63,908 nucleotides of DNA, filler included, from Perkinsus chesapeaki ATCC PRA-425 (GCA_013115145.1; 4 parts of 4 records of this genome joined end to end with filler, not necessarily neighbours in it), one strand, 5' to 3'; shown: positions 21,654 to 62,525, numbered from the whole stretch's first letter. Notes: a model not told the origin generated them from the sequence alone. Translations and numbers: made by a program.

Positions 21654-21675
21654 GTGGTACGGTACCACTGGTACC
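21654..21675. other. Exact 22-bp excision-type scar, X=GTGGTACC
   Basis: gtggtac+ggtaccac+tggtacc = X(1-7)+rc(X)+X(2-8). Confidence 0.75.
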
Positions 21676-22047
21676 TACGAGACAATGAATGCTCGACTCC
21701 CTCAAGTATTGCGATATCGGAGCTGCTGCTTCCATCTACTCGCTAGCTCCTCAAACCGGTTACGGGCCTTTCTACCCCGCTGGCGATCACTTCCACAGTG
21801 TCGAATTTCATCTTAGCAATTTGTCAACGACGAAACTGCTTTATGGAACGTAATTTTACTTCTCGCCGTTATATATTCCACAGCATGCTCTACAGTTTTT
21901 TCTTACTCATACAAACTCAAGACAGATCATATGCTGAGGAATACTTCTCTGCAATCCACCCGCGGGGAACTGCAACAAACTACATGTATAAGTACTGACT
22001 GCTTTCCACCAAGAATTTCATGCTGCACTCACCGAACTAAATGATGC

Positions 22048-23157
22048 CTACTTGAGCACTGCAATGCCAACTCTTTTCTTATCCGGTTGGAACTCTAGGT
22101 AATTGCCTATTAACACGAAGTCTGGTAGCTGCCATTGTTGTGCGTTAGACGCTAGGATTTGCAAATAACAGAAATCTGCAGAGACGGGAACGTAGCTCTC
22201 AGAACTGATGCTAAGGGGGACACCTCCAGTCGGAGTAGCCAGCATGAAGTGTAGAGTCGGCATGTATTTCCTATATTTGCACTTAACTTCCCATACGCCA
22301 TAGTCGGCTTCATATTCAATCCTGACTTCCTTTTTAGCTGAACTGCTTGCTGCTTGTTCAATGCTCCCGAGTAGCTCATTTAGCTTCGCTGGCGGAACGT
22401 ATATGTAATTACATCCAGTATCAAGGAGCACTGTATCAGCAACAGCCACTTTAAGTGTTTCTCCTAGCTCAACCGCACTCAGTTCGACGCGCCAGGAGTC
22501 ATCCCTCACTGTCGGAACGAATGACAAGGGTCCTCTATAGAGGGATCGATCCCCACCACCAAGTATTAGCTCTCCCTTATATTCTGTAGCCCGAGGGCGC
22601 TTTGCTCTCAGGTATAAGCCAAAAACGTTTCCGTTTATTGGTGTCGGAAAGAGGCTCATTAGTTGCTTTAAAAACGAGGGATATTTGTCGTCAATACTCG
22701 GACCCATGCCAAGCAGTGAATAAGGGCTGTTATAGTAAGGACTGAAGTCGCCAATCAATCCGAAGGTGATGTCATGAAGGCTCACATTTCCAAAGTTTAC
22801 GCTCCCCGAGTGCTCAAATATTCTATACAACGTAGCTCCGCCAAAGTCGACAAGATTATACTCTGTGGGGTGGCAGGGCCAAAGGCATTCATAACACTTG
22901 AAAAACAGCTTATCGCAAGCACCTCTTCCGGCAACTTTCTCATACTGAGTTTTCCACACCCAAAGCAGGTAGGAAGAGCCCGTGTCCACAAGAGCTTTCA
23001 TCTCTTGCCCGTCTGCTATCATGGCTGTATAAAGTCCGAACCCTCGAGGGGTCTTATCGGTGATGAAGCTTCGGGTAAGAGACTGTCTCAGAACGCTACC
23101 GGCATTGCACTCGATCAAGATATAGACCAAACGAGCCAAAGAGGTGTAAAGGTTCAT
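22048..23157 (-). CDS. Pepsin-like A1 aspartic protease, copy 1 (intronless, secreted)
   Basis: Signal peptide; VDTGSS and LDTGCN catalytic motifs; GELILGG; C-terminal FQPDKKRVGIA. Confidence 0.9.
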   Translation of the reverse strand: MNLYTSLARLVYILIECNAGSVLRQSLTRSFITDKTPRGFGLYTAMIADGQEMKALVDTGSSYLLWVWKTQYEKVAGRGACDKLFFKCYECLWPCHPTEYNLVDFGGATLYRIFEHSGSVNFGNVSLHDITFGLIGDFSPYYNSPYSLLGMGPSIDDKYPSFLKQLMSLFPTPINGNVFGLYLRAKRPRATEYKGELILGGGDRSLYRGPLSFVPTVRDDSWRVELSAVELGETLKVAVADTVLLDTGCNYIYVPPAKLNELLGSIEQAASSSAKKEVRIEYEADYGVWEVKCKYRKYMPTLHFMLATPTGGVPLSISSESYVPVSADFCYLQILASNAQQWQLPDFVLIGNYLEFQPDKKRVGIAVLK

Positions 23158-23939
23158 ATTAATAAAAAATAACTAAAGGCTTTGATGTTCTCGAGCTTGT
23201 AAGGGATATGTTGAATCGAACATGCGGTATGTAGGCTAACAAGTTTCTAGTAACAACAGTTACAAAACCGTCGAACAGAGTAAAACCCTAACTGCTAATA
23301 CATGCCAGTCTCATCAGTCTGGTCTCGTGCTTTCATCACACGCCACATTTGGGTGCTTACCAAATCACATGTGTCATGGGAGAGATTAGGATCTCAGAAG
23401 GCTGTGGTAAGTCACCACTGGTGACACAGTTTCGCTGGCGTCACGGAGCCCGGTGTCTCAAGTCGCGTCCCGGGGACAACTCGATTGTAAAACTTAGCTC
23501 GATGTCTGATAGTATGGGATTCAATTCGTTACCAATTCCACTACTGGGCGGAAGAAACTTTGACAGTAAAAGAGGCGATACCAACGTTATAAGATCTGAT
23601 ATGTCCTAAGACCACGAATCCTACCGCAGGATCCTGGAATCCCGATTCGGCCAATGGGAACCAACCGTCAGCCAAGAAGAATCATCATGGTGAGCGAACT
23701 TAAGGGAAACTCAGGGGAACAAGCGCGATCATCGGTGTTGGATTGTGCTGGCCAGGTCATATCTTTTCTCGGCTTCCCTGGGTGGGCGATGTGAGCAGTA
23801 GTGATGGTTTTTCGGATGACGGCTCCACGAGGATACACCCGGTCTCGACGATGGAGCCTTGGCCTGGGCCTGCAAGCTCACACACAGTCTGGAGCGAGTG
23901 ATAGTCGCGCTCTTATAAACTATGAGTTGGCTATACGGG

Positions 23940-24443
23940 GAAAGCGTTGACCAGAGCATTACAAGGCTTAGCAATGAAGATGGATTGTCTACAACGTTTA
24001 CAGGGAGCGACGCCGCGGCGTCCACAGCCGGAATAGGCAACTGGGCTATTGAAGACGTGTTGAGGCAACATAGACTCGACGTTAGAACAGTCGTAGGAAG
24101 AGCTGTGCTCGGCGAACGGAGATCTCGCATTAGTACGACTGACAAGAGAGCACAGGAGATGGCCAAGCGCGAGTTTACTAAGCAGGATTGTATGATTATA
24201 CACTTTAATAACCACTATGCCATGGTCTTCGCCTACCGGGAGAGGGACAACCTCAAAGAGGTCCTTACTGCGAAAAAGGGACAAAAGCCCAAGAATTGGG
24301 TAGATTTGACACACGTTATAGCTGCTTTGAATAAATGGCAAGGTTATCGGGTTGGTGGAATCAACAAGATGAGCACTGCGGAAGTTCAGCAGTCAGAATC
24401 GATGCGTGATGAGAGCGAAGACCCGGATTTTAACCAATCGTGA
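23940..24443 (+). pseudogene. 5'-truncated, frameshifted duplicate of the BIVM-like gene 3' half
   Basis: High similarity to 20300-20790. A 5-nt net insertion (gcgacgccgcggcgtcc versus gcgaggccgtcc) shifts the frame near 24010, and the upstream two-thirds is missing. Confidence 0.8.
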
Positions 24444-26113: not shown

Positions 26114-27089
26114 AATAACTATCGTGGTATACAGTACTATAGCGGCTATGAACGAGAAGAGCAATGTCTGCGCTGGCCCGTACGGGCTCCACGGGAGTCG
26201 CCCCCGCCAGCATTGTGTTACTCATGTGGGTGCTGGTGTATAAGCAATGCCAATACAGGTGTTTGATGCACCTTATGGTTTGAAAATCCAGTCCTGCAGG
26301 ATGCATGACTTAAAAGTTTGAATTCGGTCGGTGGCAGATAACCGCTCGTAGGCTGATACGATCGTGCCTAAGTGATGATCGCGTGAAGCAATTGCTAGGG
26401 CGCAGGCCGTGTGATACCACCACAAGAGAGCAGTGCTCGCAGAGCGCTAGCCATAAATGACCATGCTACAGCGCCGGTCGTTAAATAAAGAGGCTCTGTA
26501 ACAGAGCGCCAGCCGTGACTCACAGTTCAGGCATTCCAGTCATCGTGCGGAGGTTTCACCACCATTGTAGTATACTTGTGCTGCCTGTGCCACAGGCCCT
26601 GTGGTGTGCGATCCGCCCAGTGTCACACAACCAGAAGAGGCAACTGAATCGGGCAAAGGTTGCAGTATGAGATCGCGACCGTAAGCCAGCTCAGTGTGGG
26701 CTGCCCAAGCTCCACGAATGGAACCTTGCAATGAGTGATAGGTATGCTCTTCCCAGTCATGCAATCTTGTAAGCCGCACTCTCCGTGGCGCATTGAATAC
26801 AACGGTAGCGCATGCGTGCATGTTGTAAAGTTCACACAATTCCTAGACTCATCAGTCGTCTCTAAAGCGGTGCAATCGAATTGAGCAACCTGACTTTCTT
26901 GCTAAACTTGCCAACTTGCTCAATCCTACATTCTCTGCGAACGCTGCTGAGTTGCTCAAATCGATTTGCTTCTTTGCATTCTTCAAAGTNNNNNNNNNNN
27001 NNNNNNNNNNNNNNNNNNNNNNNNNNNNNNNNNTTAATTAATTAANNNNNNNNNNNNNNNNNNNNNNNNNNNNNNNNNNNNNNNNNNNN

Positions 27090-27520: not shown

Positions 27521-28189
27521 TCATCAACCAATGTTTGACGTACGTGACACAAGGTTCGAACGCTCAAGCTCAACATGAGGTGATGCAAGATGCGCTGTGA
27601 GGCATGTTTCTTGACAGGAAGCACCTAGCCGCACACGAACCGGTGACACCGAATCGGCGTCGCCGACAGGATGCCACCGTGACGCCGGCAGTTTCACACC
27701 CCATACTTCGGGCAAATCAATCAGTGATCGACAGATTCTTTACTTTCGGCCGGTTCTCTCTATGCCATTCGTAGGAACCTTCCTCCTCATCATCAGTGCT
27801 GTCTTGGTAGTCACGAGATTTTGACCATCAGATCCTTCTGTTCTTTAGGCAAGTGTCAACGCGGAGCCTCCTAGGAGCTACTCACCGAGGTGAAATCTCA
27901 GACTTTCTTCCATCCAATGAAATATCTTCTATGGTGGCCAGCAGCAGCCGCCGGCTGCTAGCCGGCTGGGTTGCCTAGCCCTGGTGACGGACGGATGATC
28001 ACATGTTGCCGCAACTGAAAACCCCTCTGCCGTATCGTAACGCTATATCGTCTCTAGTTTTCTACTGCTATGTTAGCAGTGCAATCTTCATCTTGGAAAG
28101 TTTGTCGGCCTGATCACCCTCAGCTGAGTACTGAGCATTCTGGCACTTCTGTCATATAGTATTGCCCCTTGAATTGAGAGTCTTGGTCT

Positions 28190-30348
28190 TGCCGGTGTCA
28201 TCTTGTACGGTGCCACGTGGACATATGTTCCAATTCTACGTCATTCAGGGAGCAGTCGACAGGCGCTGTGCAACCACCTCTACAAGGGACGCCTGCCCTT
28301 ATACCTAGACAAGACCCTATGGCGGTCTTCGAAGCTTTCGTGTCTCAAAGAGGTAAGTAACCCTTGGTCGACCGTATTTCTGGAGTCGTCATGTTGACCA
28401 TCAGGACGTGTGTACACCGCCGGCGAAGAATCCCAACACTTGGAGAACTATAAAAAGGAGTTAATGAAGCGTCCCAACTCGGTGTCGCTCGTGGAACTGC
28501 AAGATATATTCGACGAAAGCAGGCCGGCTATAATGCAGAGCGTAGTTGATGAGATCAATTCCAAACAAAATACGTGGAAAGCCTCGATAGAGCAAGGAAG
28601 GCTTAAAGGTGCTTAAACTTGCTTAGACTCTCCCTACTTCAGTTATCTTTAGGCGCTTCCATACGGGATGTTCACCACCAAGTGTAAGTGTACCACCAAG
28701 ACTGTGTGGTACACTTACAAATGCAACTCAAGTGGTCTTGGGAGAGGTTTACTCGACGGTAAAGACTGTACCTGACGACTTGCCTAGTACCTTCGATGCT
28801 CGCTTACATTTCGGTGAGTGCAAAGATATCATTGGACATATCAGGTAAGCAGAATACTATCACTTGCCGCGATCAATGGATTCCCCTCAGGGATCAATCT
28901 GAATGCGGCTCGTGTTGGGCAGTAGCACCTACGTCAGCCTTCAATGATAGACTTTGTATCGCGACAAAAGGGGCATTCCAACAGCTATTATCTGCTGGGC
29001 ACATGCTTGCTTGCTGCCGCCCGCCCGACTGTCAGTAATGATCAGCAAATAGTAGCCAGTGGCTACTATTTGCTGATCATGACTATTTATGATTGACTAC
29101 TGATTGACTATTTATGTGGCTACTAGCCACATAAATTCACTGACTCATTGCGTCAAGCTAACTGCTTGTGAAATTATCAGTAATGATAATTATAGTACGA
29201 CACACGCAGTGCCGATGCAGTGCGTCGAAGTGAAATTGGTAAAGTATACGGGTGGGCCCTTGTAGCCCGGTACCTGTACGTTGCACCGAACTGTGACGTG
29301 GTTGAGAACTGCACGTGGTACAAGCCGGAGGTCTCGCTCACTGGGGTGCCAGAGGTTCGCGGCGCAATCCGCACGTTGTTTATATGTGCTGGAGGCTTTG
29401 TCGTAGAAGCCTTCTGCTTTCACCTCCATCGCCGTTCCGTGAGGCCTCAACAATTGTTTCTAACAGACGTGCCAAGTATGTTTAGGATATTTTACGACGG
29501 CAATCGTTTAGGTCATTCGGATGTACCAGCGGGAGCCAAGTATCAGCATGGTTCTTCCTCCGCAAGGGAGTGGTTTCAGGTGATGAGGAACCATGCCAAT
29601 CTCTTAGCCTCGTTGGGTCAAACGAAGTTAATTCAGGTGGTGATTATGCGGCGAAAGATGAGATGACAAAAGCCGATGGTTGCTGGCCGTACAACTTCCC
29701 CAAGTGTGCTCATGATATTATAAGCCACAAGTATCCCCCGTGCACGAAGGTATGTGAACGATTTGGTCCATCGGTCGTGATTTGCGGTTTCAGAATGTAC
29801 CCGAGACGCCTGATTGCGTGGACAGTTGCCCGAACCAAAAGTATACGACATCCTTCGATAAGTAAGCTCCGAAGGATTTATCGATTCGATGTCTCTGTTT
29901 GAAGTGATCTCCATCGTACCTCTGCCTATCCTCGCAGCTTTCAAGACCCTCCAAGTATAAAAAGTGAGATCATGGCCAACGGTCCGGTGAGTCGGGCATT
30001 GGTCACTCCATATTGCTTGCTGTCCTATTATGTGCCAAGCTTGACTATAATGGGATCGAAACAGTGAAGTGTGATATACTACAACGATCTTTAAATCAGG
30101 TATCGGCATCTATGAAGGTATACGAGGACTTCCTCACTTATAAATCTGGTGTCTATAGTCATATGACAGGGGCGGAACTCGGAAGTCATGGCGTGAAGAT
30201 AATCGGCTGGGGCAATGAAGGCGGGGAAGACTTTTGGTTGGTTGTTAACTCCTGGAATGAAGAGTGGGGTGAGCACGGCTTGTTCAAGATCAAAATTGGC
30301 GATAGCGGGATCGAAGAAGCAGTTCTCGGCGCAAAAATACAAGAATGA
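28190..30348 (+). pseudogene. Cathepsin B-like cysteine protease (C1A), apparently disrupted in the propeptide; start approximate
   Basis: DDLPSTFDAR, RDQSECGSCWA (catalytic Cys), occluding-loop GCWPYNFPKCAH, YKSGVY, GSHGVKIIGWG (His) and VNSWNEEWG (Asn). A templated insertion at about 28680-28720 introduces a stop/frameshift under the most parsimonious splicing. Confidence 0.75.
29038..29136. other. Long-armed paired palindromic scar, inferred TSD GTAGCCAC
   Basis: 21-bp arm + G + 21-bp arm (29038-29080) and 13-bp arm + C + 13-bp arm (29110-29136). Confidence 0.75.
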
Positions 30349-33300
30349 TATTTTACGTAGCCGTTGGAGCCATTAAGCTTAGCCCGAGCAATAATGTTAC
30401 GTGTAGTCTGACATTTGCCTCATCCCGTCTTAAACTACACCGCTCTACGAGCTTGGAGACATCCTCATTAGCTTTGTCTTTTTACACTTGTCAATCCGGT
30501 TCAATAGCGTCACATATGATGTATTGTGTTTGAATACGAATCAATTTATACATATTATTTCACAAATGGGCCGGGCAACCGCCGATAGGACTTAAGACCC
30601 TTATCGCAAATAGGACTCAAGATGCTAATCGTCAATACCACTTAAGATGCTTATTGCCAGATCCTTGAAACCCCTCTCAAGATTTCTGAACTGATCAAGT
30701 AGGTCATGAGCTTGATCCCCAATTAACGTCATTGCGTCATTGCAACTCATATTTCGAGTTACAAATCCGCACTCTCCGCGCAGTAGACACTTTCTCGTAT
30801 TTCTGTGTGGCACATATAGCTGCCAGTATGTCTCCAAATAACTACCACATTGACGAGCAATTCGTACGACAGTTAAAAAACCTCGCTGAAACAATTCAAG
30901 GTTCTGATTCCTACTATTCTATCTCATCCACGGCGGATGAGATAGATATGATCCGCTCACCCACCTACCTATCAATCACATCTTCGGCGATCCATTAACC
31001 GAGCTGGACTTGGTGAGAAAATCGAACGATTGGCGATTGAATCTGATAAGACAGGAGCATTGCCGCTCTTGCTGACTTGGTGAATCATGCGTAAAAGTAC
31101 TCGTTGGGAATTGAAACCCAGGTTAACCAACAATAGCAATAACAAAGGTCTTTGGCAAAGATAGTGCATTTACGTGGGGTTAATTTCCCACAGTCCTCCA
31201 AATCAACTCTGCCAATATCACGCATTTGTCACAATTTGGCAATTCTATGCCCCGAACTCGAGGAGCCTCGTTTATATGTGGTCAACTTAAATACACTGTA
31301 AATGCCAGACGCTTCGTAAATCTATCCGGAGTGTTAAAGGCTGCAACTGGAACTGCAAATCTTGCAACACGAATTATACGCTGCCTTACAGTACTATCGA
31401 TCACCAAATATCTTACTATTAATCTTGATATACCTTACATTAAGTGTCCTATTAGTAAATAGCGAATACTAAGCTGTTTCATAACATTTCATATCGTTAA
31501 AGTACACAACGAATTGAAAGCAACGAGATCGATTTGTTAACACACCACCCTTTCTACAACAGCACAAATTATACGGAAAATTATCCCAAATATGTTTCAT
31601 GAATTGGGTATCTTACAATATAAGATACTTCTCACCTCGCCAATCGCTCATCTGTATCAGATACCCAACCAGCATTCATCAACTCGATCGATGATCTCCG
31701 TTTCTCTCGATTCGGAAGTAATCTACGCTGCTTCAAAGCACCCAGTTTGTTACGCCTGAAAAGAAGAAAATTTACAAATCTGAAATTCCATACGAATTCT
31801 GAACATGTACACCAAAAAACACAGTTCAAGTCTGTGACACACGCGTGTTTCACAATAACTACTGATCTACTGCCCCAAGCAAACGGTTACATTAATGGAG
31901 CAGAAAGCTATAGCATGTCGCGATAAAGAAGAGCCAAGGACCAGACCCGGCACTTCACAGTTCGTGTCTGAGACATGCCCCAGCTACTATTGGCCGTTGA
32001 GCCTAGAAGTCCTAGCAGCAGATGCATAGTCGAACAGTTACACCACAGCGAGAGCAGGAAACTATAGCATACCCCAGCTACTGAGGCTCAGCGTCGGCAC
32101 TACGGCAAAGAACCGAACCCGGGATCTCACAGAAGCCTCGGCAACGGATCAATCTCTTTCAGTTTTTCCGGTTTCGATACACGACGCTGCAGCCCTTCCA
32201 TTTGCTTCACACCATTTCGACCAGCGGTGATCTCCATCAGTTTCAGACCAACCTGACCCAAGTTCGACCCCTGGTGGCGACAATTCTTTCTCACCAAATT
32301 AGCCCTCGGATCAGCCACCATCAATTTAGTAATAAAAGTTATGTCCTGCGCCATCGGCACGAGCAAGACAATAATGTCCTCCTGATATATAGAATCATCA
32401 GACAATTCGAAATTACTATTTTTTGTATATCCACTTTTCTCGTATGATTACAAATATGATTGTCACTGACAACTTATCAGGGAAAACTAATATACTATCA
32501 CTGATAATACAGTATTATGTATATATTAAATACATATATATTACTATATATATTACTATAATGCAAGTATCCTTAAGTCTCAAAATTAAAGTCCCAATTT
32601 CTCATCCAACACCAACAGAATCGCACTTTACAAGGATTCAAAAGGCGAAAAGAAAATTCGGGCACAACATCTGCACAATTTGCCAAAAATATTTTCTCGC
32701 TTACCATGAGCATTTCAACATATCGCTTAGGCGGGGTCACCGTTGACTCAAATGGAACGCTCTTACCGCGCAGCAATGCGTATCCTTCCCTCTCGTTTAC
32801 CAACCTAAGTAGACACATACTTGCATGCTTCTCAGTAATACCGAGGCTTAAAGCTGCAGCCACCGGTAGTATTACTGCGAACTCAACGTGCAGTGTATTA
32901 TGCCTGCAACCTACCAAACCTTAGTTCTCTCCCGACGTAGAGCGGGAAGTCAAAATTGTACGATATTTTGACCAGGGAAACTCAATGCGATCAATATCGA
33001 TCAACCGTTTCATGGGCCGATCAATTTGCACACACTGCATACCATGATATATAGATTGTATATCGAACCTACCCTCAGCTCTCGCGGCTCATGCACGAAA
33101 CTTTCTATTTTCTTTTTACCGAATGTCCCCACATTTTTACCATCTCCCTCGAAACCCGGGCCGGGTTTCGAGGGAAGAAATCGCTCATTTTTCTTACCAC
33201 TTGATTTCCAAATTGACTTGTCGTTTCCTCAGCACCATCGGCACATCCACCGACGCTCTGAGGACGCTCGAGAACGCATTAATCTCCTACAAACGGAAAA

Positions 33301-35459
33301 TGCCCCGACACTTCTGCATCACAATAACTCACTTTTCGAGAAATCACCTCGGCACTTCCAGGAAAAATAGCTGTCTCGATCGCCGTGCAGACATCCAAAA
33401 AATCGCCATGAATCAGACCAGATGATCGCATTGTGAAGATTCTACTGCCAGCCGATGGCCTCAACCTGATTCAAACATTGTCGTGATGAAATAATGACAT
33501 CAGTAATCGAAATGAGAATATGGCATACAATAATGGCTGTTGGTGAGGAAAGTGAATTATGAGGTAAAAATTATTTCTAATTAAATTCTACCGGATAATG
33601 AATATTTATTCCTCCGATGGAATCCTAGCTTATGACACATTTATGTAGATATTATATGCACCATATCAAAGGATGCGCTTCTATATCTTTTACATTAAGG
33701 ATGAATCATCTATCTTTTAAATGATCATCAAAGGGCGCATCTTTCATGGCAGTTTTGATCAGCTTAGAATTACCAAAAGATACTCCAAAACTGCCGCTGA
33801 TAAATCATGCTCCTATCCACTTCATATCAGTTCCTCAGCTGCCTATCACGAGTCTCGCGATTTTTCCAAAGATGTAATTTTAGTCTAAAAAATATAAAGA
33901 CTATAATGTAATATCTTCCAATTGTCATCAATTCCAAGTATATCGCAGGCAACAAAAATCACAAATGATCTCTCACCATATCTTTATTTTTCCTTCATGT
34001 CCACCACCGGAATTCTTCAACTCGAATTTTCTATCATCCACCAACTTTAACAGCAACGCATCAATCTCATTCACATAACCCTCTAAACGCTTGAATACTC
34101 GATGTTTGCGGATCTAGGAGAAAACGTCACTGCGCCACGAAATTAGCTACCGCAATTGGTTACCATAATAACATCTTTGTCATCTGCAGTAGCGAGGAAT
34201 CTCTTCATGATTTCTTCAGCTACGAAAATCTGACTTGCAAATCTTGCAAATCTTGCATTTTCTCAACGCGTCCGGCTTTTCCCGGTAAATCCTCATACAG
34301 TACTGGGTTATTCCCCCCATTAGAACATCCAAATTCACTGGTTGAATGACCACAACAAATAGCGCACTCAACAATGCCCAACACTGTGCCAGATAATAAA
34401 ATGGCGCGCGGTCATTGCGATGTCCGGCCGACTCTCTGCGATTTAAATGGATGGATGTGTGAGTGCCATTGTTGGATAGTGTGGCGGTATTAAGTGTATT
34501 ACAGGTAAAGAGACCAGATGAATAAGGACTTAAATATAATAGCTGATATATATAGATATGTATGGAGCAACATAGCTTTCAACAACTTGCATCAAAATTG
34601 AGTATAATAGTCGGACAGCTTCCGCAAAAATGAGATGATATTATATACTCTATATAAAATTTCGAATATATCTTATCAGCAGCGAATGTCGCAAGAAAGA
34701 TTGGCGCTCCGCCACTGGCGGGTTACCGCGATAACTATAACCGAGTTCAGGAGTGCGGCGGAGAGGAATGGACATGATGGCACGAAGAGTTTTCACCGAA
34801 CGGGACTCTTGGGCTTGACTAGTACTCCCACAGAGAGCTAATTGGCATCCCAATTCAAGTCTCCTTATCTAGAAGCGCTCCTCGGAGGAGCCTCACCCCT
34901 GTGAGATTTCCTTACTTCATCATTATCCAACATCTCTCCGATTTTCACCACCAATCTGGCCATCACCTCTCCGCGATTCGTAGTCAATCTTGGTAGCCCT
35001 GATGCAAGCCATGATTTCGACCGGTTGGCGCGATCACCCCACCACCGATATCATTCAGCTTCACTCACACCCGTTAGATGTTCTATACCTTATATGTAGT
35101 TAGGGACGCTGTTTGTTGTGTACTGCTGGTGGATCCCACCGTGCCCGCAACGCAGAAGATCCATATAGATAAATTGTTATTAGTAATATATAAATCTATA
35201 CGTCGATCATAGGTACTCTAAAAGGGTATTTAAGTTTGATACGTTATCACGCATATTTCTTTCAAATCTTAAAAAACTATAAATTTTTGTCATGACCGTT
35301 TATATTCCCCATACAATAAAGATTTATCGAAGACATAGTTTTCATCTCAATATTAGTCACCAGCTGAACTAAATAACGTCGCGAGGACCTCCCAATGCGA
35401 AATGTATGTAAACTTCCAGCACTCATTGGCAGTGCCGGCGGACTGGAGTGCCACACTCC

Positions 35460-39270: not shown

Positions 39271-39292
39271 GCTGTGAATCACAGCCTGTGAT
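39271..39292. other. Exact 22-bp excision-type scar, X=GCTGTGAT
   Basis: gctgtga+atcacagc+ctgtgat. Confidence 0.75.
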
Positions 39293-44249: not shown

Positions 44250-44271
44250 TCACCTGTCAGGTGACACCTGA
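44250..44271. other. Exact 22-bp excision-type scar, X=TCACCTGA
   Basis: tcacctg+tcaggtga+cacctga. Confidence 0.75.
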
Positions 44272-48720: not shown

Positions 48721-48757
48721 TCGATGCAGCATCGAGCATTCGAGCATCGACGATGCT
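48721..48757. other. Paired scar with extended arm, X=TCGATGCT
   Basis: tcgatgc+agcatcga+gcattcg+agcatcga+cgatgct. Confidence 0.7.
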
Positions 48758-49999: not shown

Positions 50000-51640
50000 G
50001 TATAAAATAATCAGCATATGGTGCTGATGGTTCTTATCTCATCCATGAGATGAAGATGCCGGGTTGGTACAACGCAACTTTCATGTCACACCAGGAACGT
50101 GTCCACGCCCCGATTGTGAGAATAACGCGGGCAAGAAGATCCTCGTTGAGGGGCTGTCTGCAGTGGAGACACTCCACTAAAATTAAGACTGAGCATGCAG
50201 AACGGCGGGCTGTGAAGCTTCAATGCAGCAATTATTCATTCACCTTTGCAATCGCTGCGCAATATGACCTCCTTGGTCGATACAATGGTATGTGTTGTAG
50301 TAAACACGGCCTCTTGAATACGTCACTGGCGCAGAGACATGACTTATGCTCGCCTAGGGTACCGTTTTACCGCTTGGTTTTACCATGGCGGATATGTTTT
50401 TCTCTCCTAGAGAGATTTGGATATAGGTTGTCTTCTCCCATATTTTCCCCAATTTCGACGATACTCGGACGCCCTGAAGTCCGCACTTTCGTCGACGACG
50501 TCACCAAGGCCAGCCCTGCGGTATTGCCCGTGATGTAACACTCTAACCAAACGCGCCAGTTGGCGCAAAACAAACTCTAAAATAGGACAGACGTACAAGA
50601 GCATGGACTACAGCGATCTAAGGGCCTTAGACTAAGGCCAATCATTCCGGTGTAGTCCAATTCGTGCACTGCCAACTGGTCCAGTGATCAGCTGGTCCAC
50701 GGACCAACTGTAATACTCTAGACGCAACACACCGAAATTGGTGAGGATAAAAGAATATGCAGGCAGACAACAACACTATAGCTAATCGATAGAACTGCGC
50801 AATATGAATAAGAGACAGGACTTGTGCAAACCATGACACCAACTCATCCAGGGATCAACTCGTACACTGGACGAGATCAGGTACCAACTCTGAGTCATCC
50901 ACACCAGCCAGTACCAACTCATCCAGCACTGAGTCGGACACCAGTTTTTACCAATTTGTCCAGTGCAAACACCAGTTTTTACCAATTCGTCCAGTGCCAA
51001 CTCGTCCACTTTTACACCCGCTCGCGAAAATAGTGCTAATATGAGCGCCCCCTCCCGCGATTGCCCCTGCCCCCTTTGGTACCTCACCGAGTTCCAACCT
51101 GGGTTTCTCGCGTGAGAGGCAGACATACTAACTACTACACTAGGAGTCAACTCATTTTTGTGGCACACTGGTCTAAGCCTCTCGTTATAACAACTAACTC
51201 GTCACGCGCCACACTATTGAATAACTATCTTTTCGATCCGTCCTTATGGTGTCATGCTAACGCTTACGAGCGCACAAGCAACCTCTTTGAGGCTTTTCAT
51301 CATTCTTTAAATGATGTTTGTTATATTACGCGCCCTTCTTTCTACTATATACTAACAATTATTGTTGACGGTGTGTCCGACTTTGGTCAACGGTTCACAA
51401 GAATACGGGCTGGGGACGCTTGCCGTCACGTTGACGGCGTCAACCAACCCAAGATCGCAAACAGGCCGAAGGAAACACTGGAAAGAGCATATGCGGCTAC
51501 TTTCCCCGAGTATGCTGGAACATCGTGGGCTACTGAACCTATCCGCTTGACTGAAGACAAATATATTGCATACTTGAAGGCATACAGTTCTGCCCTAGCA
51601 AGATCAAGGCCACAGAAGAAGTTGCACAATACTCAAGACT
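50000..51640 (+). mobile_element. Degenerate MULE (Mutator-like) transposase relic
   Basis: WCHANAYERTSNLFEAFHHSLN...RPSFYYILTII matches the MULE C-terminal RTNNxxEGxHxxLN...HPxxxxFI pattern. PEVRTFVDDVTKA resembles the PxxIMTDFExA region. Multiple stops. Confidence 0.5.
50617..50638. other. Exact 22-bp excision-type scar, X=TCTAAGGC
   Basis: tctaagg+gccttaga+ctaaggc. Confidence 0.75.
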
Positions 51641-52164
51641 AATAGGACTCCCGAAGCGGAACTCCTACTCACTATCATCAAAGTTCCTTATAGTCAAAAC
51701 ATCGCTTGGTCGTGGACGAGTCTGTGGTGTACGAGTTCACCTCGTGGACCAGCTGATTACAACTTTCTTTCACGTACCATTCAGTATTAAATAAGACTGA
51801 CTCTGGGCACTTATTGGCCGTTCAATTGTTTTCGCCTTAAAGACTGAACTCCATACTATTAAGAGACCGAGAGAAGAGAATGAGACGGTGTTGAGATTCA
51901 ACAGCAAAACAATACACCAAGAGAGCATACTTCTACCCTCAACATCAAGTGAGCTAACACCACAGTCGTACATGATGTTATGGAGCCCATCAAATGCAGC
52001 AAATCTGTTATGAACCTTCAAGCACTCCTCAGCCGTTGGGGTTGACGGAACTTCACTTCGTTACTGTAATCATTGAGGTATAGGATTCCTATCATAGGAA
52101 AGGTAATCTGCTTAAGATTATCGGCCTGATAGCTAATGGCCACATGTCTGCTGCTCGTTACTGG

Positions 52165-53289
52165 TTACCACGAGCCAGATAGCTCCGCGGTACCAACCTT
52201 ATTGTTCTCTTGCTGGAACTCAAAATACTTGCCAATGAAGGTTTCGCCACCAAATGCCCAAGACGGTTCTGCAGTTTTCCGAAAAAGAAGACTGCATCCA
52301 CCCCGTAAATGTGCATCGGCATAGTTTATGTGGGTAAGAGTTAAAGGGACATCCCCCTTGGTACCGAGCCCACATCAGATTGGTGGCAGGAGAGAATGAT
52401 ACTCACACGGGAATTCAATGAGACCAGACTTGTTATTCCAGGTATAGGATATTCTTCTTCCACCCACCTCAGGTGTTTGCTGTGCAATACTTGCTATTAA
52501 ATCATCAAAATATATCTGAGGGACTCGACTAGAAGCGTCTCCGGTATCCAGTAGAAGATGCTGGTTGATGCCAATAGTAAGATAGCCACCTCCACCCTGC
52601 ATGCTACTCAATGTGATCTCGTAATGCCTACGGCTGTTGAACTTGACGTAGCGGAGTGGATGCTTGTAGACTCTGGGGTCACCTCCACCCAGTACAAGCT
52701 TGCCCTTGTGACCATCAGCAGTTGACAGATAAATTGCGAAAGTTAGGGACCGTATCCTTCTTGACTTTAACAGCTCATGCAGGAATAAGTTGAAGTCGGC
52801 GTCCTTGTAAATCCCAAGCCCAAGTAGGTTAATCGGTTTCACTTCAGTAGGCGGAGGAGTCTGACCATATATCAAACCGAAGCTCAAGTTTGGAACTTCA
52901 ATTTCCCCAAACCTGATGGTGTCTTTTTGTGGGAATATGACGAAAGTAGACCCATCAGCGAACCTTGTTACATACTCAACGTGGGGAAAGCAAGGCTCTG
53001 GACATGTGTAGCAACCAGAAGGGAGGTACTTGCAGCCTCCTTCACCAACCACGCTTTCAATGAAAGCGTATGGAAAGATTGGTATGACATACCAATCTTT
53101 CCATACGAAGAAATCAGGCGACCCAGTATCCACCACTGCCTGAAGCTTGTTAGTGCCGATATCAAATGTATAGAGTATACGAGGTGAATAACCTCGTAGT
53201 ACCCTATACTGAATATCAAGTTCTAACAGCTGGCCTACTGTAGTTGACAATGAAGACAGAAGGCCCAGCATCACAAAGATACCAAGCAT
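52165..53289 (-). pseudogene. Pepsin-like A1 aspartic protease, copy 3, with a premature TGA and a 30-nt palindromic insertion
   Basis: MLGIFVMLGLL signal peptide; VDTGSP and LDTGDA motifs. In-frame TGA at 52375-52377, after which the frame continues ...DVPLTLT...FIGKYFEFQQENNKVGTAEL* (stop 52165-52167). Confidence 0.8.
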
Positions 53290-53576
53290 AGTGGATGAAG
53301 TGGAATGACTAAAGTTACGACAGTCCGAAGTGGTCATCGTCCTTGCAATGTAGTTAGAAAACATCGTAGTTAATCTTCGGCTCACACACTGTCGCTACAG
53401 AAAGTCGTAAATTGCACACGCGTGCATCAAGTGAATGAGTTTCTCGCGCACCAGACACCTCCGTACGCGTGCGCACGCGTCACGCGGCTGCAAACTCAGC
53501 CCCCCACCGCGCTATTATAGCATTGCTATAAGACCGTAATGGACATCCATGGCCATAGTCTGATCACAGGGTCCTA

Positions 53577-54545
53577 TTGACCTTCCATATGGAACCATTC
53601 CTCAAAAGAATATGGCCCGCTGAGTCGGCATACCCGAGCGATATATCATCCGGTAAAGAAGACGGTCGGCTCCAAGTGAAAGGAGAGAATTTTCCTTCCA
53701 ACACTGGTGGTCGGTCATTTTTGGCGGCGTGGCAGGATAGATACGATTGGCTGGAGTATTCTGCCCTGAAAGACAGTACTTTTTGCTTCTACTGCAGACA
53801 CTTCAGTGCGCCCAAAGTTGGTAAGGGCTCCCCATTCTTCAGCGACCCGAACGGTTTCTCGAACTGAAAAAAAGCAATTCAGAGGTTCGACGAACACTCT
53901 GCGAGTGACTATCATCAGACTTCGGCTAAGTATTTCCTACAGCGGTAGCTAATGAAGAAAAGAGGTCAATCAGTTGCCACTTTGATCAATACCCAAAACC
54001 AAGATGTGGTCAAACAAAATCGTCATTACTTGCGATCGATCCTCTTTTGTATTTTTTTTCGTTGTAAGCAAGGGTTGGCCCTAAGGGGGCATCGAGAAGC
54101 CCTCTCGAACGTGGCCGACGGTGACAATCCGGGAAATTTCCTGGAACTGACTCGTTTGCTGAGTCGTTTTGATGACGTTGTCAAGCAGAGGCTCTCCGAT
54201 GGTCCTGGGAATGCGAGATACACTCATCACTCTATACAGAATGATCTCATTGCTTGCGCGGCAAAGCTTGTTCGTCAGTCTGTAGCATCCGAGGTGGCTG
54301 CTTGCGGTGCTTTCAGCCTCATATGCGACGAGGCTCGCGATATCGCTCATACGGAGCGACTATCCCTCTGCGTCCGGTACGTGTATGACGCGCACTGCGC
54401 GTCGCGCAGATCAAAGAAGAGTTCCTCGCCTTTGTTCGGTGCGAAAAACTGGATGCCGCCAGCCTTACAGATGAGATTTTCCGCACCCTTGGCGAGGTCG
54501 GTATACATCCTTCTCTCATGGTTAGCCAGTGTTACGACGGAGCGA
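53577..54545 (+). mobile_element. hAT-superfamily transposase relic (TTF-type Zn finger + DUF4371/ZMYM1-like), 3'-truncated
   Basis: RSFLAAWQDRYDWLEYS...FCFYCRHF, GFSN*KKA (W to stop), QGLALRGH, NPGNFLEL, RYTHHSIQNDLI, FSLICDEARD (first catalytic Asp), RLSLCVRYV. After a frameshift: IKEEFLAF...SQCYDGAS. Confidence 0.85.
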
Positions 54546-54768
54546 GCGTCCATCGTGAACCCGGTTTTCAAGAAGTCTCAGCAGGACTCCAAACGCCACA
54601 ACGCTGTCAGTATAGGAAGTCAAAATTGACCAAAATACGACAGGCACAGACAGCTCTAGAAGGTCTCCCATGTGGCCTGCGGACTCGGAACCTGCTCTTA
54701 AGGTATAGAACATCAAACCGCTGCAGGAAGCCGATACTATCTCGAGATACTATCTAGCCGATACAATA

Positions 54769-54790
54769 TTCCGTAGTACGGAATCCGTAC
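54769..54790. other. Exact 22-bp excision-type scar, X=TTCCGTAC
   Basis: ttccgta+gtacggaa+tccgtac. Confidence 0.75.
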
Positions 54791-54943
54791 GGAAACACGC
54801 CTTACATTGAAAGACATTTCTGGCAGAAATTTATGCAGAAATTTTCTGCATCGGTGAGGTATGGCCGGCCGACAGTGCGCTCATGGGCCACAGTGGCCAC
54901 TTATGGCCCACAGTGCCGATCCACTATGCAACATTCAACGTCC

Positions 54944-54965
54944 TGTGACAGTGTCACAGTGACAC
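54944..54965. other. Exact 22-bp excision-type scar, X=TGTGACAC
   Basis: tgtgaca+gtgtcaca+gtgacac. Confidence 0.75.
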
Positions 54966-54999
54966 ACGGGCCGTGACACGGCCAATATTGCGATTATTC

Positions 55000-55289: not shown

Positions 55290-56040
55290 CCGCGATTCGT
55301 CCATTGTTGTTTCGTCCATGGCATGTTCCGTCCAGGATCGTTTCGTCCACTGTGATTGTGCTTGTTTCGTACACATTTGTTTCGTCCATGTAGGGTTTTG
55401 TCCACGATTGTTTCGTTCATGCTTGCTTCATGCAAAGATGTGCTGACAATGCGCGTTGCGTACATGGCCTTCCAATAGACATTCGTCCACGCCTGTTACA
55501 TTTACAGAACATGCTGGGTCTATAAGAAACCTGGTATGAGATAATAGATAGGATAAGTGGCCTTGACATAACCCGAATGTTGATTATCCGATTGAGTGGA
55601 ATATGCGGAGCGAAGCGCATGATATTTGGTAGACTTTGATACGACGTTTTCAAGCATAATCCGACGAAGAAAGTCAAATTAGCAGATGCGCGTTAGTCCA
55701 GTTAAACGGGTCATCTACGGTTCAGAAGGTCGTCGGTTCGATCCTTGGTAACTCACCCTCGGAGAAAGTTTCTCCGAGAAACGGAAAAGTTCGGCCGAAG
55801 GACGAACACTAACCTTTGGCATGTGATGCCGCGACGGCATCACATATGTCAAAAATTGGTGTGGACGAAGCGAGCATGTACGAAATATGCATGTACGAAG
55901 CGCATATGGATGGAACGAGCAGATTAAGAGCGGAAATGTAAGAAACGGCGTGGACGAAAGAAGCATGGGGGAAAAGCGCATGAGTGAACTGTAAGTGTAC
56001 GAAGTGAGCTGGAGGAACGCGCATGGATGAAAAGAGCTGG
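55290..56040. mobile_element. Putative foldback/TIR element with inverted arrays of short subterminal repeats
   Basis: TTCGTCCA-like motifs repeated at 55290-55500 and TGGACGAA/GTACGAA-like motifs repeated at 55795-56030. Confidence 0.4.
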
Positions 56041-56095
56041 GCCGCCGTAGGCGAATCCGGCCGCCGGATTACGGCGGATTCCCGGTAGTAATCTA

Positions 56096-56390
56096 CTACC
56101 GAGCCTGGCCCCACAACAACTACCGAACCTGGGCGGACTACTACTGCGCCTGGTCCCGCAACTTCTTCTGAGCCTGGGCAAACAAATACTACTGATCCTG
56201 GGCCTACAGCTCTTCCTGAGCCTGGGCCCACAACTACTGCTGAGCCTGGCCCCGCAACTACTACTGAACCCGACCCTACCACAACTAGTACCCAGCCTGG
56301 CCTTGCAACAACAACCGAGCCTGGGCCCACAACTACTACCGAGCCTGGCCCCACAACTACTGCTGAGCCCGGCTCTATAGTAGCTTAGGA
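56096..56390 (+). pseudogene. Mucin-like TTTEPGP repeat fragment
   Basis: The plus frame encodes about 11 TTT(T/A)EPGP-like units. It is bounded by stops (TAG TAA upstream, TAG downstream) with no start; the listed minus ORFs are antisense shadows. Confidence 0.55.
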
Positions 56391-59148
56391 CGATTTGGCT
56401 ACTACGGCCGTGATTCCGTTTGAGCCTGTAAGGCACGCTCTAGTTGTCAACCTGAGCAAGCTTCGTCTTTGTAAAACAGCCTTATGTCGTCTCCGCAAGA
56501 CCTAGTCGGTTTTGGAACCGAAGATGGTCCTTCTTTCTACTCGAGTAGATTCTCGTCCTGGAATGTCAGACTATACTCGTTCCGATACGAGCTGGACGGA
56601 CACTGTAATTGTTGTGTTCCACCTGAACGATTGAGTCATTTGTATTGACGCCCGCATCTCTCTTCAACCTGCGACTTCCTGGTGTTGTTCCCTAGCAGTC
56701 TAGGCTAGCCTCAGCGATTCCTACGACCACGAGGCTCGCCGGTGAATAGGCTTGTAGAAGCAAAACTGCTTTGAAATTTTCAATCGAAAAATTTTCGATC
56801 GAACACGATGAATTTTCAAAGTGCAAATTCATCGTGTTCGATCGATAATCGTGATTACTAGTCTACTAGTCGGACTAGGAATAGAATGTAATCTTGTAAC
56901 GAGGTTCAGCTAGCTCGTCTTTCTCTGACAGAAACCATTGCTGGTACTAGAGTAAGCACAGAGCGCCTTAGTAGCGGCGTCAGTTCCGGAGTCGCTCTAT
57001 GATGCGAGTCCTTCCATCCCTACGAGCGTCCGTGAGCACGGGTTTTACGCCGAACGTGAAAGGCTGGCTACCCATCATGGGCGCAAAAGCTTTTACAGAC
57101 CAGTGAGCACCATGGCGAGAGCTCGACCACGTAACTATCCGACAACATCTGTAATATCATATTGGGGCATCCGGTGACCGGATTCCGCCCAACCAAAGTC
57201 ACTCCGTTCTACAAGCGGCCGCTTAAGCGTTAATATTGCGAGCCAACAAGCGAGTACTAACCTCACCGTAACCTTACCGTTTGCTGAACTCTTATTTACC
57301 TTCTAACATACAGTGCCGCAATGTCAAGTATCGGCTTGTCAAGCCGGGCTTGAAGGCCGAGGTTCTGACTCAGTACTACTGAGGTCTGAAGCAAGTCACC
57401 GGCATTACCAAGCCACTACTAGTCATAAAATTCATACTAAATTTGAGAGATCAATCAATGTATCTAAACTGTATCAAGATTTTACTACAATCATGTATCA
57501 CCGAGCCACTTTCAATCACTGAATTTGTGATAAACGACATCGTCTCCTCAGAAATTCCTGAGCTTTTTTCACATTGAAAACATAAAACAAATGAGAGGAC
57601 TTCACCAGGAGAAGTTCACCTGCATAACTCTAACAGATACAGCCAAATGAAACTTATATCAAATTAACATGCCACAGCCTTCCCGGTAGACTCGGCAAAC
57701 TCGCTTGTAGTCGGTGGTCTGGGCACCATGTTATGATCCATACTGCAAATTGCAGTCTGCAATATAACGCAAGTATCAGAAGACTGGAGTAGATAAACAA
57801 CATTAATGAAGTTAAGCAGGTACTGACAGTGCCTGTTTGCTATGCAGTACCGTACTGTATAGCGTAGCTCACACAATAGACAAGTAGAGATTAGCGCAAG
57901 CGCGTAAGAAGCGCAACTTCTTGGAGATTATCGATCGCCGCGGCGAGCGCAGCTTACTACGATCGATAATACTACCCGACTCCCGAACAGTGAGGGATCC
58001 CAACGTTGTATTCCGCATTGCTGTTCGAAGTGGGCTTTGTAGATTGATGCCCAGTTGCTGGCGCTCTTTCGGCTTGCCCCAAGGTCTCTCTCGAGTCTCC
58101 GACTCGAAGATCTGATCTTGATGCCTCCGGCGGTAGGCCACCTTCATAGGTGAATGTATACTCCACAATGTGGAGTATACAAGCTCGCCTCGAGTTAGAC
58201 CCATTGCTTCCTCAAACAGCTGCTGCTTGACACTGGTGGCCAGACGGTGATTGATATATATTGCTCTCCCGAGACCAGAGGGCCGAACGGCGACCGCGCC
58301 CATCCGAGAGATAGCAGTAGTGCGATACTCCTGCAGCAAGAAGGTCAAGAATATCATACCTACTGCTGATGGAGTTGGTGCTCCATCCACGTATGGCACT
58401 GGTTAACACCAGCTTTCGGATGAATTCCCGTCTGCTCAAGGCTTGGGCAGACGGGAATCCATCCGAAGCCACGGCGGAGGATATCATTGTGATACGGCCG
58501 GGGTTGGAACGCTCCAAAAACGTAGCTTTTTCACGTGAAACCTCTGACTGCGGGGACTGGGAGGTAGGGACGCGCCGGCGGTGTACCTGGCAGACGATGG
58601 TGCCTAGGATACAGGACCTGGCTGCGGAATCCAAGGGTCTCGCAGACATGGAACCGCCGGAGCGGAGCGCTGNNNNNNNNNNNNNNNNNNNNNNNNNNNN
58701 NNNNNNNNNNNNNNNNTTAATTAATTAANNNNNNNNNNNNNNNNNNNNNNNNNNNNNNNNNNNNNNNNNNNNCAAAGTTTGATCATCAAACCGATGAAAC
58801 TGATTACATCAGGAACTTCATAATAGGAAATCTAACCCACCTATGATTAGTTAGTGTGAGGTACTATTACTTAATGATAAGATTCTTTAGATGACTGTAT
58901 AGACAGTTAGTTTAGTGCTCCGCTTTACATTTGGATAATGAGGCCGCTTTATGCAGCAGTATGCTTGTTAGACGGCGCTACTAGTCCCACTTGTTAGTGA
59001 CGAAGGCTGATAAGCTAGTAGTATACCGCGTTAGTCGTGTGCGATCTAGGTCTTTAGAAAGAGCCTATGTCGGTGTTGAGACTCTCAATTTGAGAGTGTT
59101 CAAGTCGTCGACCCTGTGGCCCATCGCAATACGTGGTTTGCAGGACTT

Positions 59149-59956: not shown

Positions 59957-60662
59957 CCAAGAATCATCTTCCGTCTTATACGAAGCATTACAGCGACTCC
60001 TCAAGCACAAGAGGGGCGCCCACGAAGGAACGTGACGGCCTTCTACCATTGTGCTCATAAGGGCGGGAACAAGGACTTCTCAAGAACAACCTGCTAGTAT
60101 TGACAGAAATTACTTGGAACTCAACATCGTTGCTTGAGTGTCCCCACAAGACCCTTGATCAGCAATATATAATGCTGTTAGCATGTCTCTCTGTTCGGAT
60201 TCATAGAGCTTCAGGCTACCCACGTTTCTGCACATTCTGCAGGAGATCGTAAAAACTGCTAGTAGTGATGCTCTAGCGAGCCCAGCATTGCAAGGTCGAA
60301 AGGATTCAATCGGGATAGTGATTCAATCTTGGCCCTGGCAGGGCTGTTGAGTGCCAGAAAGAACTTCCAACCCAAGGCTTATTAAGGGCGCAGAAAACCC
60401 TAACGTATGCGTGCAACTGTGTAGATCACATAGCTAATAGCGAACTGCGCAACTACAAAGGGCAGTGAAAAGATAACCATTCTCAGCTACCTACACTCAC
60501 TAAGTACTCAGCTACTACACATACTGAAATCCTAGGACAGCTAATCTCAAACTAGTGCACATAGAGTGACATAGCTTATGCTAATAAATAGTCATTATCT
60601 ACTTCCTTACTGGGCTGCCCTGCGAGCGTTGCTGATCGCGCCATGGAATACACTCACCCGCC

Positions 60663-61410
60663 TCAGGTAAAACTTACTCGCACTACGATGCACTCGAAGA
60701 GTGATAGAAAGCCGAAATGGGATAAGAATAGGAAATACAGACTCCATCTTGGACCAAGATTCTTGGTGGCAAAGAAGAAGATCGTTTCAGCGCATGCTTC
60801 CTTGTATGGAATCCATACTATGGATCTCACTGCGGGCTCAACCGGCGCTATGCTCCATCGTTTGTTAGGTACAGACTGGACTGAACCGTTTCGCAAAAAG
60901 CTTCCTGGAGCGGAGTGTCTCGGGTAACTTCTGCCCCGGGAGAGCTCCGCAGCCCAAAGGCTGAGCTGATGCCGGACGACCTCTGTAGCGCAGACTCTCC
61001 CCACAATGTATAACCCGCATCTGCGCCTCCACGTACCGCCATCGGCTCCTCGGACACGCTCCCTAGATGACCGGGGTCGCCGCCCAGCCGGAAAGGCTTG
61101 CACACAGTGTACAGTCTTGGTCGAGGGGCACTGCTTCGCTTCTCCGGCTACGTATGCCCCCTCCCCTTTCTCGAAGCTACATGTTCCAATAAGCGGTATC
61201 ACTGTAATTTCACTCAGTATAATCTTCTTTTCGCGAACCGAAAGTGAGGAGCTCATCATTTTGCTAGACAGCTTCGACGACGCGTTGAAATGTCCATCAT
61301 CCAATTGAGACTAGTGGTTATCATGTTCCTCGTGGATATCATCAACTGCACTCGCATGTCCCCGGAGCAGCAGCAGCAGAATGAGTACCGTGCCGGCCAC
61401 TAACAGAGCC
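60663..61410 (-). pseudogene. Hypothetical N-terminally anchored protein with an in-frame TAG
   Basis: ALLVAGTVLILLLLLRG...HDNH*SQLDDGHF... The stop at 61311-61313 interrupts one long frame. No family recognised. Confidence 0.35.
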
Positions 61411-62437
61411 TATATGTATTTCGTCAGATACACCTCATTCAACCAGGATCCTGGTAGATGACTTTAATCTTTCTAAAGAGATCTGTGCTGAGCAGGTTGC
61501 TATGAGAAACCTCAGGGGAAATGTGTCTACAATCAAGTGACAAATGAGATCTCAGGTTGCACGTGCAGGAAGGGCGTGCTTCCCATGGGTAAAGTAACAA
61601 CCCCGGTAATTGCTACGTGTGTTTGCACACGGTGCGACTAGTCCGCCACAGGGGTGCTCGCTCGCCCCGCGCAGCGGTTTCTGTTGCTCACTCATCGCAA
61701 AGGAGTGATAACTCATCCCTAGTAGTACTAGGCTACTAGCCATCGTACTAGTAGTACGATCGCTTCTCCCCCCTTTTTTTAACCGGGTCTCTATAGGCCT
61801 CATCGCCCGTCTCATCTCATATCCCTATACTCTCCTCTCGGGAGTTCACATGTCCGACTGTGTATATCTATTTCCGCACTCCGGGGTGCGGGCTGAAGGT
61901 TTCCCATGTGATCTGTAGTATCTGTCTTGTGCCACCCCAGTGGATACCGGGCTAGTCGCGAATCTTAACAGGCTTACAGCAAGCTATTATGGCTTCATGC
62001 TCGTAACAACTTGTTACGAGCGTGTAAGGGAGTATTGTGTGAATTGTCCCTTGTTACCAACAATATTGTGTGGATTGTCCCTTATTACCAACTGCTCGGC
62101 TCCTTGGTGTCACCAAGTTTGTGTGTGCAACACACTGTGGTAGAGGGTCGTTCCTGGTCGTTGGTAGCCGGAACCTTCGTGATGTGCCTACGGCTTTACT
62201 TCCGCATAATTTATGACTCGCGCGTATCGATCACGCTATGCCGTGTCCTAATGTCGCACACGCACTGTCGGTTATATGCTTTCGGGGGATGAGCTTGAGT
62301 TTTCTCCCCTATCCCTTCCCACACGGCGCAAGGACCTTGCCGTTTTTCGACTTTGGCCCTTTGAAGTGTAGGAAACCCACTTTCCCGCACTCGGACCCAC
62401 GCGCCGTAACGGAAGGATTTAAAATGATTTACAATCC

Positions 62438-62525
62438 ACGAAAAGCATGAAAGTTTCATGCTTTTCGTAAGCGGCCAGCACAGACACAAGCGGCCAGCAG
62501 ACAGTGTTTCATCATGAAACACTGT
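62438..62525. other. Long-armed paired palindromic scar, inferred TSD CATGAAAC
   Basis: 15+1+15 palindrome at 62438-62468 and 12+1+12 palindrome at 62501-62525. Confidence 0.7.

Follow-up and report, generated by a model that had tools for sequence, protein, structure and literature searches.

The departure of a DNA transposon is usually invisible in a single genome, so the frequency of exit and the amount of sequence that footprints add are hard to measure. A 63,908-nucleotide stretch of Perkinsus chesapeaki ATCC PRA-425 DNA (GCA_013115145.1; here called the window and numbered from its first letter) raises the question of whether such departures can be read from one genome. An earlier note had described a recurrent scar in this DNA, X(1-7)+rc(X)+X(2-8), in which rc(X) is the reverse complement of an 8-mer X, and had ascribed it to hairpin-mediated excision of hAT-type elements. 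We confirmed that the scars are real and commoner than the note had counted, and we consider it likely that they are the healed donor sites of a hAT-family transposon, the hairpin-capped flanks of which were joined via their 8-base target arms.

To count the scars, we searched for all matches to X(1..k-1)+rc(X)+X(2..k) in the window, with k from 2 to 13 and with 60 dinucleotide shuffles in 500-base blocks as the null. At k=8, exact scars numbered 13, rising to 23 when one mismatch was allowed and to 33 when two were, compared with shuffle means of 0.00, 0.00, and 0.35 (maximum of 2), respectively. The peak at k=8 that the note had predicted was thus present in the window: k=7 gave 0 exact scars, k=9 gave 0 exact, 0 one-mismatch, and 1 two-mismatch scar, k=10 to 13 gave none, and k=5 gave 3 exact scars versus 1.3 in shuffled sequence. 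Each of the six exact and four one-mismatch scars of the earlier note was recovered at its position with its 8-mer; the note's total was too low (Table 1). Palindromes with a 1-nucleotide (nt) centre and arms of at least 7 bases were likewise abundant (69 versus 4.3 in 40 shuffles); even palindromes with such arms were at chance level in the same comparison (7 with a 0-nt centre and 4 with a 2-nt centre versus 4.5). A separate class of 4-base scars (33 versus 18.5 overall, 26 of them outside the known scars) was considered and rejected as unconvincing.

Together with six pairs of long-armed palindromes described below, the eight-base events number 39, of which 33 are the canonical product, giving 0.62 events per kb of window. 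Each canonical scar adds a net 14 bases, and scar-added DNA makes up about 1% of the window (33 scars at 14 bases each and the additions of the long-armed pairs, by arithmetic). The gene-dense first 20 kb holds 3 events versus 36 in the remaining 43 kb (p=8e-4). The window consists of four scaffolds (1-26989, 27090-58672, 58773-62615, and 62716-63908, the second being 31,583 bases long) joined by identical linkers, N44-TTAATTAATTAA-N44, at 26990-27089, 58673-58772, and 62616-62715. Scars with at most two mismatches number 7, 21, 5, and 0 on scaffolds 1 to 4; their presence on three of the four joined scaffolds means that there is no single accessory locus, and the "accessory region" of the earlier note does not hold. 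Eight non-Perkinsus, hAT-bearing metagenome loci (34.5 kb) contained 0 scars.

The canonical search presupposes an 8-base overlap, and we therefore tested the overlap on odd-palindrome pairs that lie farther apart. The left and right flanks overlap by 8 bases in six long-armed pairs, with one mismatch in the pair at 62446. When pairs were picked on their inner six bases alone, 6 were obtained versus 0 in 30 shuffles, this set containing an AT-rich pair at 42252, which may be a chance match, in place of 57819. The terminal flank base was complemented by 10 of the 12 centres in the set (p=8e-5), as the note had expected of centres derived from the ancestral flank. The three long-armed pairs that the note listed are all real, except that one centre base of its 62438 pair is not complementary, and three more (39223, 54816, and 57819) had been missed. 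Arms range from 7 to 25 bases, and two pairs contain filler with a repeated word, ATTGACT in the 29052 pair and AAGCGGCCAG, present twice, in the 62446 pair. A search of the window for the origin of the filler words returned nothing beyond chance 9- to 10-mers; filler of this kind would be expected from synthesis-assisted end joining. The exact scar at 39271 is nested within the long-armed pair at 39223-39302, indicating two successive events and hence at least two rounds at one spot.

The earlier note also stated that no element was left behind. In fact, the window carries a hAT transposase pseudogene that has close paralogues (92 to 94% identity). Its reading frame contains in-frame stops, a frameshift at the 54388 scar, and an internal deletion at 54547-54550 that brings the motif of the second catalytic aspartate next to sequence ~60 residues further on, and the C-terminal half is gone. 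In tblastn alignments with three paralogous proteins, the frame switches exactly at 54388, and none of the three has extra residues there. Since all three paralogues are uninterrupted, this site was a single 8-mer that grew by 14 bases when the scar formed. At 50617, a single contig built from a public sequencing run (run X1) matches the window through X(1-7), has the eighth base of X next, and then matches 7 of 8 bases of the post-scar sequence, as a putative empty paralogous site would. The single-X ancestral state called for by the note was therefore seen at two sites. The segments duplicated within the window (20303-20747/23953-24402 and 22067-23123/25029-26085) do not cover the scars at 21654 and 23404 and provide no empty allele. 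The 54944 scar, shared with a second, higher-depth repeat copy, was duplicated together with the repeat.

Among the transposase relatives, we found the PF05699 hAT dimerisation domain and CxxH and W motifs, and the fuller ones possess the C-terminal glutamate and the dimer domain. The nearest named relatives of the window proteins are from P. chesapeaki (92% for part of the transposase, 43 to 46% for the protease) and P. olseni (69%). Three run-X1 contigs diverge at 51023 into a palindrome with 23-base arms that is missing from the window; the contigs probably come from a paralogue that bears a scar where the window has none, and the centre base of the palindrome does not complement the window base. 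High-depth repeats occupy 50550-51290, 54600-56450, and 58300-58660, with a summed contig depth of up to ~1000 versus 72; they carry facing subterminal repeats, for example TTCGTCCA and TGGACGAA, and are candidate non-autonomous elements.

The 39 inferred targets, read on both strands, gave 78 readings, in which position 2 was T in 36, C in 27, G in 9, and A in 6 (T, p=2e-4). A pyrimidine at position 2, equivalent to a purine at position 7, was found in 63 of 78 (p=2e-8), and G1/C8 in 28 of 69. Hermes and Ac-family elements prefer nTnnnnAn (PMC10368747, PMC8961557; papers cited here by PMC number are represented by excerpts of their text), and Buster elements prefer nnnTAnnn (PMC3499496), of which there was no trace among the 39 targets. 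The resemblance to nTnnnnAn suggested by the earlier note is a real bias, but in the looser form of a pyrimidine at 2 and a purine at 7. The window thus displays an 8-base target duplication, complement-centred palindromes, a single-X ancestor at two sites, and a resident hAT transposase, and the note's proposal of hAT flank hairpins joined via complementary 8-base arms withstood each of the note's refuting conditions that was put to the test.

How would such a scar arise? The starting site would be a single 8-mer X, as seen at two sites. Insertion and gap filling would turn it into X-element-X, as suggested by the 8-base overlap and the T2/A7-type bias. The transposase would then cut one base into each flank and seal hairpins, a reaction established for Ac/Ds and Hermes, to give a left hairpin, x1..x7-x8'..x1', and a right hairpin, x8'..x2'-x1..x8. 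The geometry suggests that the hairpins were opened at least 8 bases from their tips, or replicated through, which would expose x8'..x1' and x1..x8; annealing over 8 bases and fill-in would produce X(1-7)+rc(X)+X(2-8). In events that bypassed the 8-base match, the ends would retain longer arms and be sealed through short matches or by filler copied from nearby. Since a canonical scar retains both X(1-7) and X(2-8), the duplication would already have been filled in before the element's exit. The repair looks like microhomology-driven end joining with little opening at the tips.

We also counted shorter footprints of the form x1..x7 + p left P-bases + q right P-bases + x2..x8 against 30 shuffles, after dropping tandem and AT-rich sites. 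There were 13 sites with p+q=8. The (1,1) class had 3 sites versus 1.07, two of the three lying in other scars; (1,0) had 4 versus 4.2 and (0,1) had 0 versus 4.1, no (2,2) or (8,8) site was present in the window, and (1,3), (3,0), and p+q=6 had one hit each. Classical short complement-centred footprints are at chance level in the window. Although the chemistry is known, the uniform product, its density, and the scarcity of these short footprints are unusual.

Several observations weigh against the hAT reading. In the window, a scan for filled X-element-X sites (3- to 10-base duplications with inverted termini) returned only AT-rich or subterminal chance matches. The three closest transposase proteins have neither the third catalytic residue (the C-terminal glutamate) nor the dimer domain, and the empty site at 50617 is read from one contig end. 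Two of the 12 centres are non-complementary, and the target letters are looser than those of nTnnnnAn at the same positions (T2/A7 in 36 of 78, C2/G7 in 27 of 78). Of the 69 strong odd palindromes, 18 lie outside the 8-base events, unpaired or atypical, where ~4 are expected by chance, and their tip bias is not significant (12/18, p=0.12). The double palindrome at 53051-53107 has an overlap of only 4 bases, for which a trimmed duplication and another element are both conceivable. The (0,0) class is raised (33 versus 15.9 uncollapsed, 16 versus 13.8 with runs collapsed), as are plain XX repeats (5 versus 1.0, maximum of 5) and six-base direct repeats at spacings 9 to 12, 16, and 21; those at spacing 21 (31 versus 13.9) had no shared pattern on inspection. 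Footprints with non-complementary centres, deletions, and precise excisions could moreover exist unseen in one genome, and the assembly may itself have been built from run X1, the sole public DNA run that matches this sequence, no RNA run being listed for it.

That last point is what could be said for an artefact of library or assembly, an explanation to which we give practically no credence. Contigs at 47600-50584, 51019-52237, 52727-53796, and 57198-58564, among the 8 of 260 pieces listed in the comparison, have a depth of 71 to 85 and no differences from the window, and between them they span eleven scars or pairs, of which two are exact. Contigs assembled from the public reads thus contain the scars at full depth, in line with the presence in reads that the earlier note had required; the scars are also aged by point changes, nested, copied with repeats, and scarce in gene-dense DNA. 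Replication template switching (forward-back-forward) without any transposon would create a local triplication with an inverted middle, which is formally what a scar is, and the filler looks derived from synthesis. This process has no exact 8-base ruler, requires pre-existing inverted repeats, and predicts neither flank-complementary centres nor a symmetric T2/A7 bias, which makes it very improbable here. Another transposase that forms flank hairpins and 8-base duplications, most plausibly that of a Mutator-like element, would come closer, given that Muta1 forms such hairpins and makes 8- or 9-base duplications (PMC5499845). However, the 9- and 10-base class is absent here (neither exact nor one-mismatch scars at k=9, and no scar at k=10), Muta1 excised precisely in >90% of yeast events (same source), the long terminal inverted repeats of such elements were not found in the window, and both the T2/A7 bias and the scarred hAT gene point to hAT. 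We regard a Mutator-like origin as improbable.

The same hAT transposase could also have produced the same scar in hit-and-run visits, the element exiting at once. Gap filling that halts after 7 of 8 bases, against an extra 5' base, would yield the nicked hairpin substrate, and a still-bound transpososome could free the element without a lasting insertion. hAT ends, such as that of Hermes, bear a 1-base 5' extension, the geometry of the filled gap would equal that of the first nick, and scars (0.62 per kb) far outnumber recognisable elements (one pseudogene and no filled site). Nothing observed speaks directly for this route, whereas the repeat-rich, high-depth segments and several transposase paralogues imply that ordinary insertion occurred, and the resolved single changes, 7 of 8 in outer copies and 1 of 8 in the middle copy (not significant), lean toward targets that aged before excision. 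We find immediate exit unlikely. Doubtful to a similar degree is its extension to a genome-wide fossil record of hit-and-run hAT visits, with tens of thousands of sites were the window typical, in a host unable to open hairpin tips, with all breaks healed via the duplication; were it true, a hit-and-run element would amount to a +14-base genome mutator rather than a resident parasite.

If a resident hAT transposon did leave the scars, its closest counterpart is Ac/Ds in plants, Saccharomyces cerevisiae, and Candida albicans, which shares the complement-centred palindromes, the 8-base duplication, and microhomology (PMC5873905, PMC1978519). Ac/Ds footprints are palindromes centred on the complement of the element-adjacent base, with microhomology at 85 to 100% of joints in Arabidopsis and yeast, and arms of up to ~20 bases occur in yeast, a trait shared with the scars (PMC5873905); the Ac cut is placed at the 5' flanking nucleotide (PMC1978519). 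Most Ac/Ds footprints are short, and their forms vary (Candida, at most 3 bases; yeast, arms of at least 3 in 47%), whereas here one whole-duplication product makes up 33 of 39 events, and the marks have become fixed in a natural genome at a density of 0.6 per kb. Hermes and hobo resemble the scars in their flank hairpins, which for Hermes result from cutting the non-transferred strand (PMC6900584), their 8-base duplication, and T2 and A7 (PMC10368747, PMC8961557). They differ in that the bias here is relaxed to pyrimidine/purine and in the domains of the resident transposase, a TTF-type zinc finger and DUF4371. Muta1 and Mutator-like elements share flank hairpins and 8- to 9-base duplications but mostly excise precisely and have long terminal repeats and a 9-base class (PMC5499845).

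RAG and Transib make 5-base duplications and flush hairpins that give even palindromes, with P nucleotides on opening. The palindromic additions from hairpin opening are alike, but neither k=5 scars nor long-armed even palindromes are enriched here. Ascot-1 in Ascobolus, in work of Colot 1998, and Ac in yeast, in that of Yu 2004, reportedly leave non-random palindromic footprints through hairpin opening and microhomology joining. The exact full-duplication product may already be among the footprints of Colot 1998, Yu 2004, Lazarow 2012, and Hickman 2018. Our literature search, which covered sources other than subscription-journal genome papers and their supplements, turned up no account of such scars in Perkinsus, nor any inventory of its end-joining genes; in the excerpts, nonhomologous end joining (NHEJ) is touched on only in general in PMC8062965, and PMC3942190 reports no NHEJ transcripts in expressed sequence tags of Oxyrrhis.

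The mismatch spectrum (13/10/10 for zero, one, and two mismatches) fits one episode at ~4.5 to 6% decay, and it is also compatible with a spread of ages. One-sided palindromes contaminate the 3-mismatch class, so that the age structure does not separate a burst from continuing activity. The earlier note had raised the possibility of an ongoing, possibly domesticated, activity. We found no support for it: the spectrum fits a past episode, no complete Perkinsus transposase was among the matches found, and nothing points to domestication. With the C-terminal glutamate and dimer domain missing from the closest transposases and no filled site, current activity is unsupported. Kat1, the known domesticated case, left no such scar record according to the excerpt of PMC4763223. 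A scan of the eight distant metagenome hAT loci for a terminal repeat with a duplication found none.

Among neighbouring features (Table 1), the 53051-53107 double palindrome adds 10 in-frame residues to an aspartyl protease relative to its paralogues; its frame stops ~70 residues before those of the paralogues, and it is thus probably a pseudogene. A tandem duplication (22048-23172 and 25010-26221, minus strand; 20303-20747 and 23953-24402) contains two aspartyl protease paralogues with 76% DNA identity and an unknown reading frame that is 91% identical. Immediately before the 29052 long-armed scar, a plus-strand fragment at 28863-29036 (SECGSCWAV...LCIAT...MLACC) resembles what we take to be a papain-family cysteine protease. 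Tandem repeats of 24 bases (56093-56373) and 27 bases (50-339) encode Thr/Pro-rich, mucin-like peptides, and a 252-base near-exact duplication (59149-59400/59705-59956) contains a one-sided odd palindrome.

Table 1. Scars, palindrome pairs, and genes located in the window (X, target 8-mer)
Feature	Position	Strand	X or overlap	Remark
Exact scar	21654..21675		X=GTGGTACC	
Exact scar	26583..26604		X=GCCTGTGG	overlooked by the earlier note
Exact scar	39271..39292		X=GCTGTGAT	nested in long-armed pair
Exact scar	44250..44271		X=TCACCTGA	
Exact scar	50617..50638		X=TCTAAGGC	single X in one paralogous contig
Exact scar	54388..54409		X=ACGCGCAG	in hAT transposase reading frame, at frameshift
Exact scar	54769..54790		X=TTCCGTAC	
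Exact scar	54944..54965		X=TGTGACAC	common to second, higher-depth repeat copy
Exact scar	55761..55782		X=GGAGAAAC	
Exact scar	57332..57353		X=CGGCTTGA	
Exact scar	57742..57763		X=ACTGCAAT	
Exact scar	60746..60767		X=ATCTTGGT	
Exact scar	60804..60825		X=GTATGGAT	
1-mismatch scar	5029..5050			
1-mismatch scar	16055..16076			
1-mismatch scar	23404..23425			
1-mismatch scar	26486..26507			
1-mismatch scar	27944..27965			
1-mismatch scar	51423..51444			
1-mismatch scar	52079..52100			
1-mismatch scar	56055..56076			
1-mismatch scar	57362..57383			
1-mismatch scar	59075..59096			
2-mismatch scar	8770..8791			
2-mismatch scar	27646..27667			
2-mismatch scar	32459..32480			
2-mismatch scar	34877..34898			
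2-mismatch scar	50156..50177			
2-mismatch scar	53509..53530			adjoins hAT reading frame, upstream
2-mismatch scar	57169..57190			
Scar	57600..57621			single middle-copy change, scored as 2 mismatches
2-mismatch scar	61718..61739			followed by another palindrome, centre 61751
2-mismatch scar	62103..62124			
Long-armed pair	29052..29130		8-base, GTAGCCAC	centres 29059/29123; arms 21-25 and 13
Long-armed pair	39223..39302		8-base, TCTATCAC	centres 39230/39295
Long-armed pair	48721..48757		8-base, TCGATGCT	centres 48728/48750
Long-armed pair	54816..54849		8-base, ATTTCTGC	centres 54823/54842
Long-armed pair	57819..57858		8-base	centres 57826/57851; mismatched arms
Long-armed pair	62446..62520		7/8	centres 62453/62513; right centre non-complementary
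Atypical pair	53051..53107		4-base	centres 53060/53087
hAT transposase pseudogene	53589..54590	+		TTF-type zinc finger, DUF4371, first two catalytic aspartates
Aspartyl protease (PF00026)	52375-53394	-		
Molybdenum-cofactor sulfurase-like	9420-11627	-		Aminotran_5 + MOSC
S1/P1 nuclease	45775-46803	+		
Zinc-binding dehydrogenase fragment	62664-63197	+		
AAA fragment	3255-3815	-		

DNA-transposon excision normally goes unseen in one genome, and these scars label each event by themselves: each yields its target 8-mer, its age through the decay of three copies, and its repair outcome. Scars disrupt genes, including that of the transposase itself, and can insert in-frame residues. The uniform product offers a naturally occurring record of how Perkinsozoa repair double-strand breaks, and it bears on the outcomes to be expected from genome editing in Perkinsus parasites.

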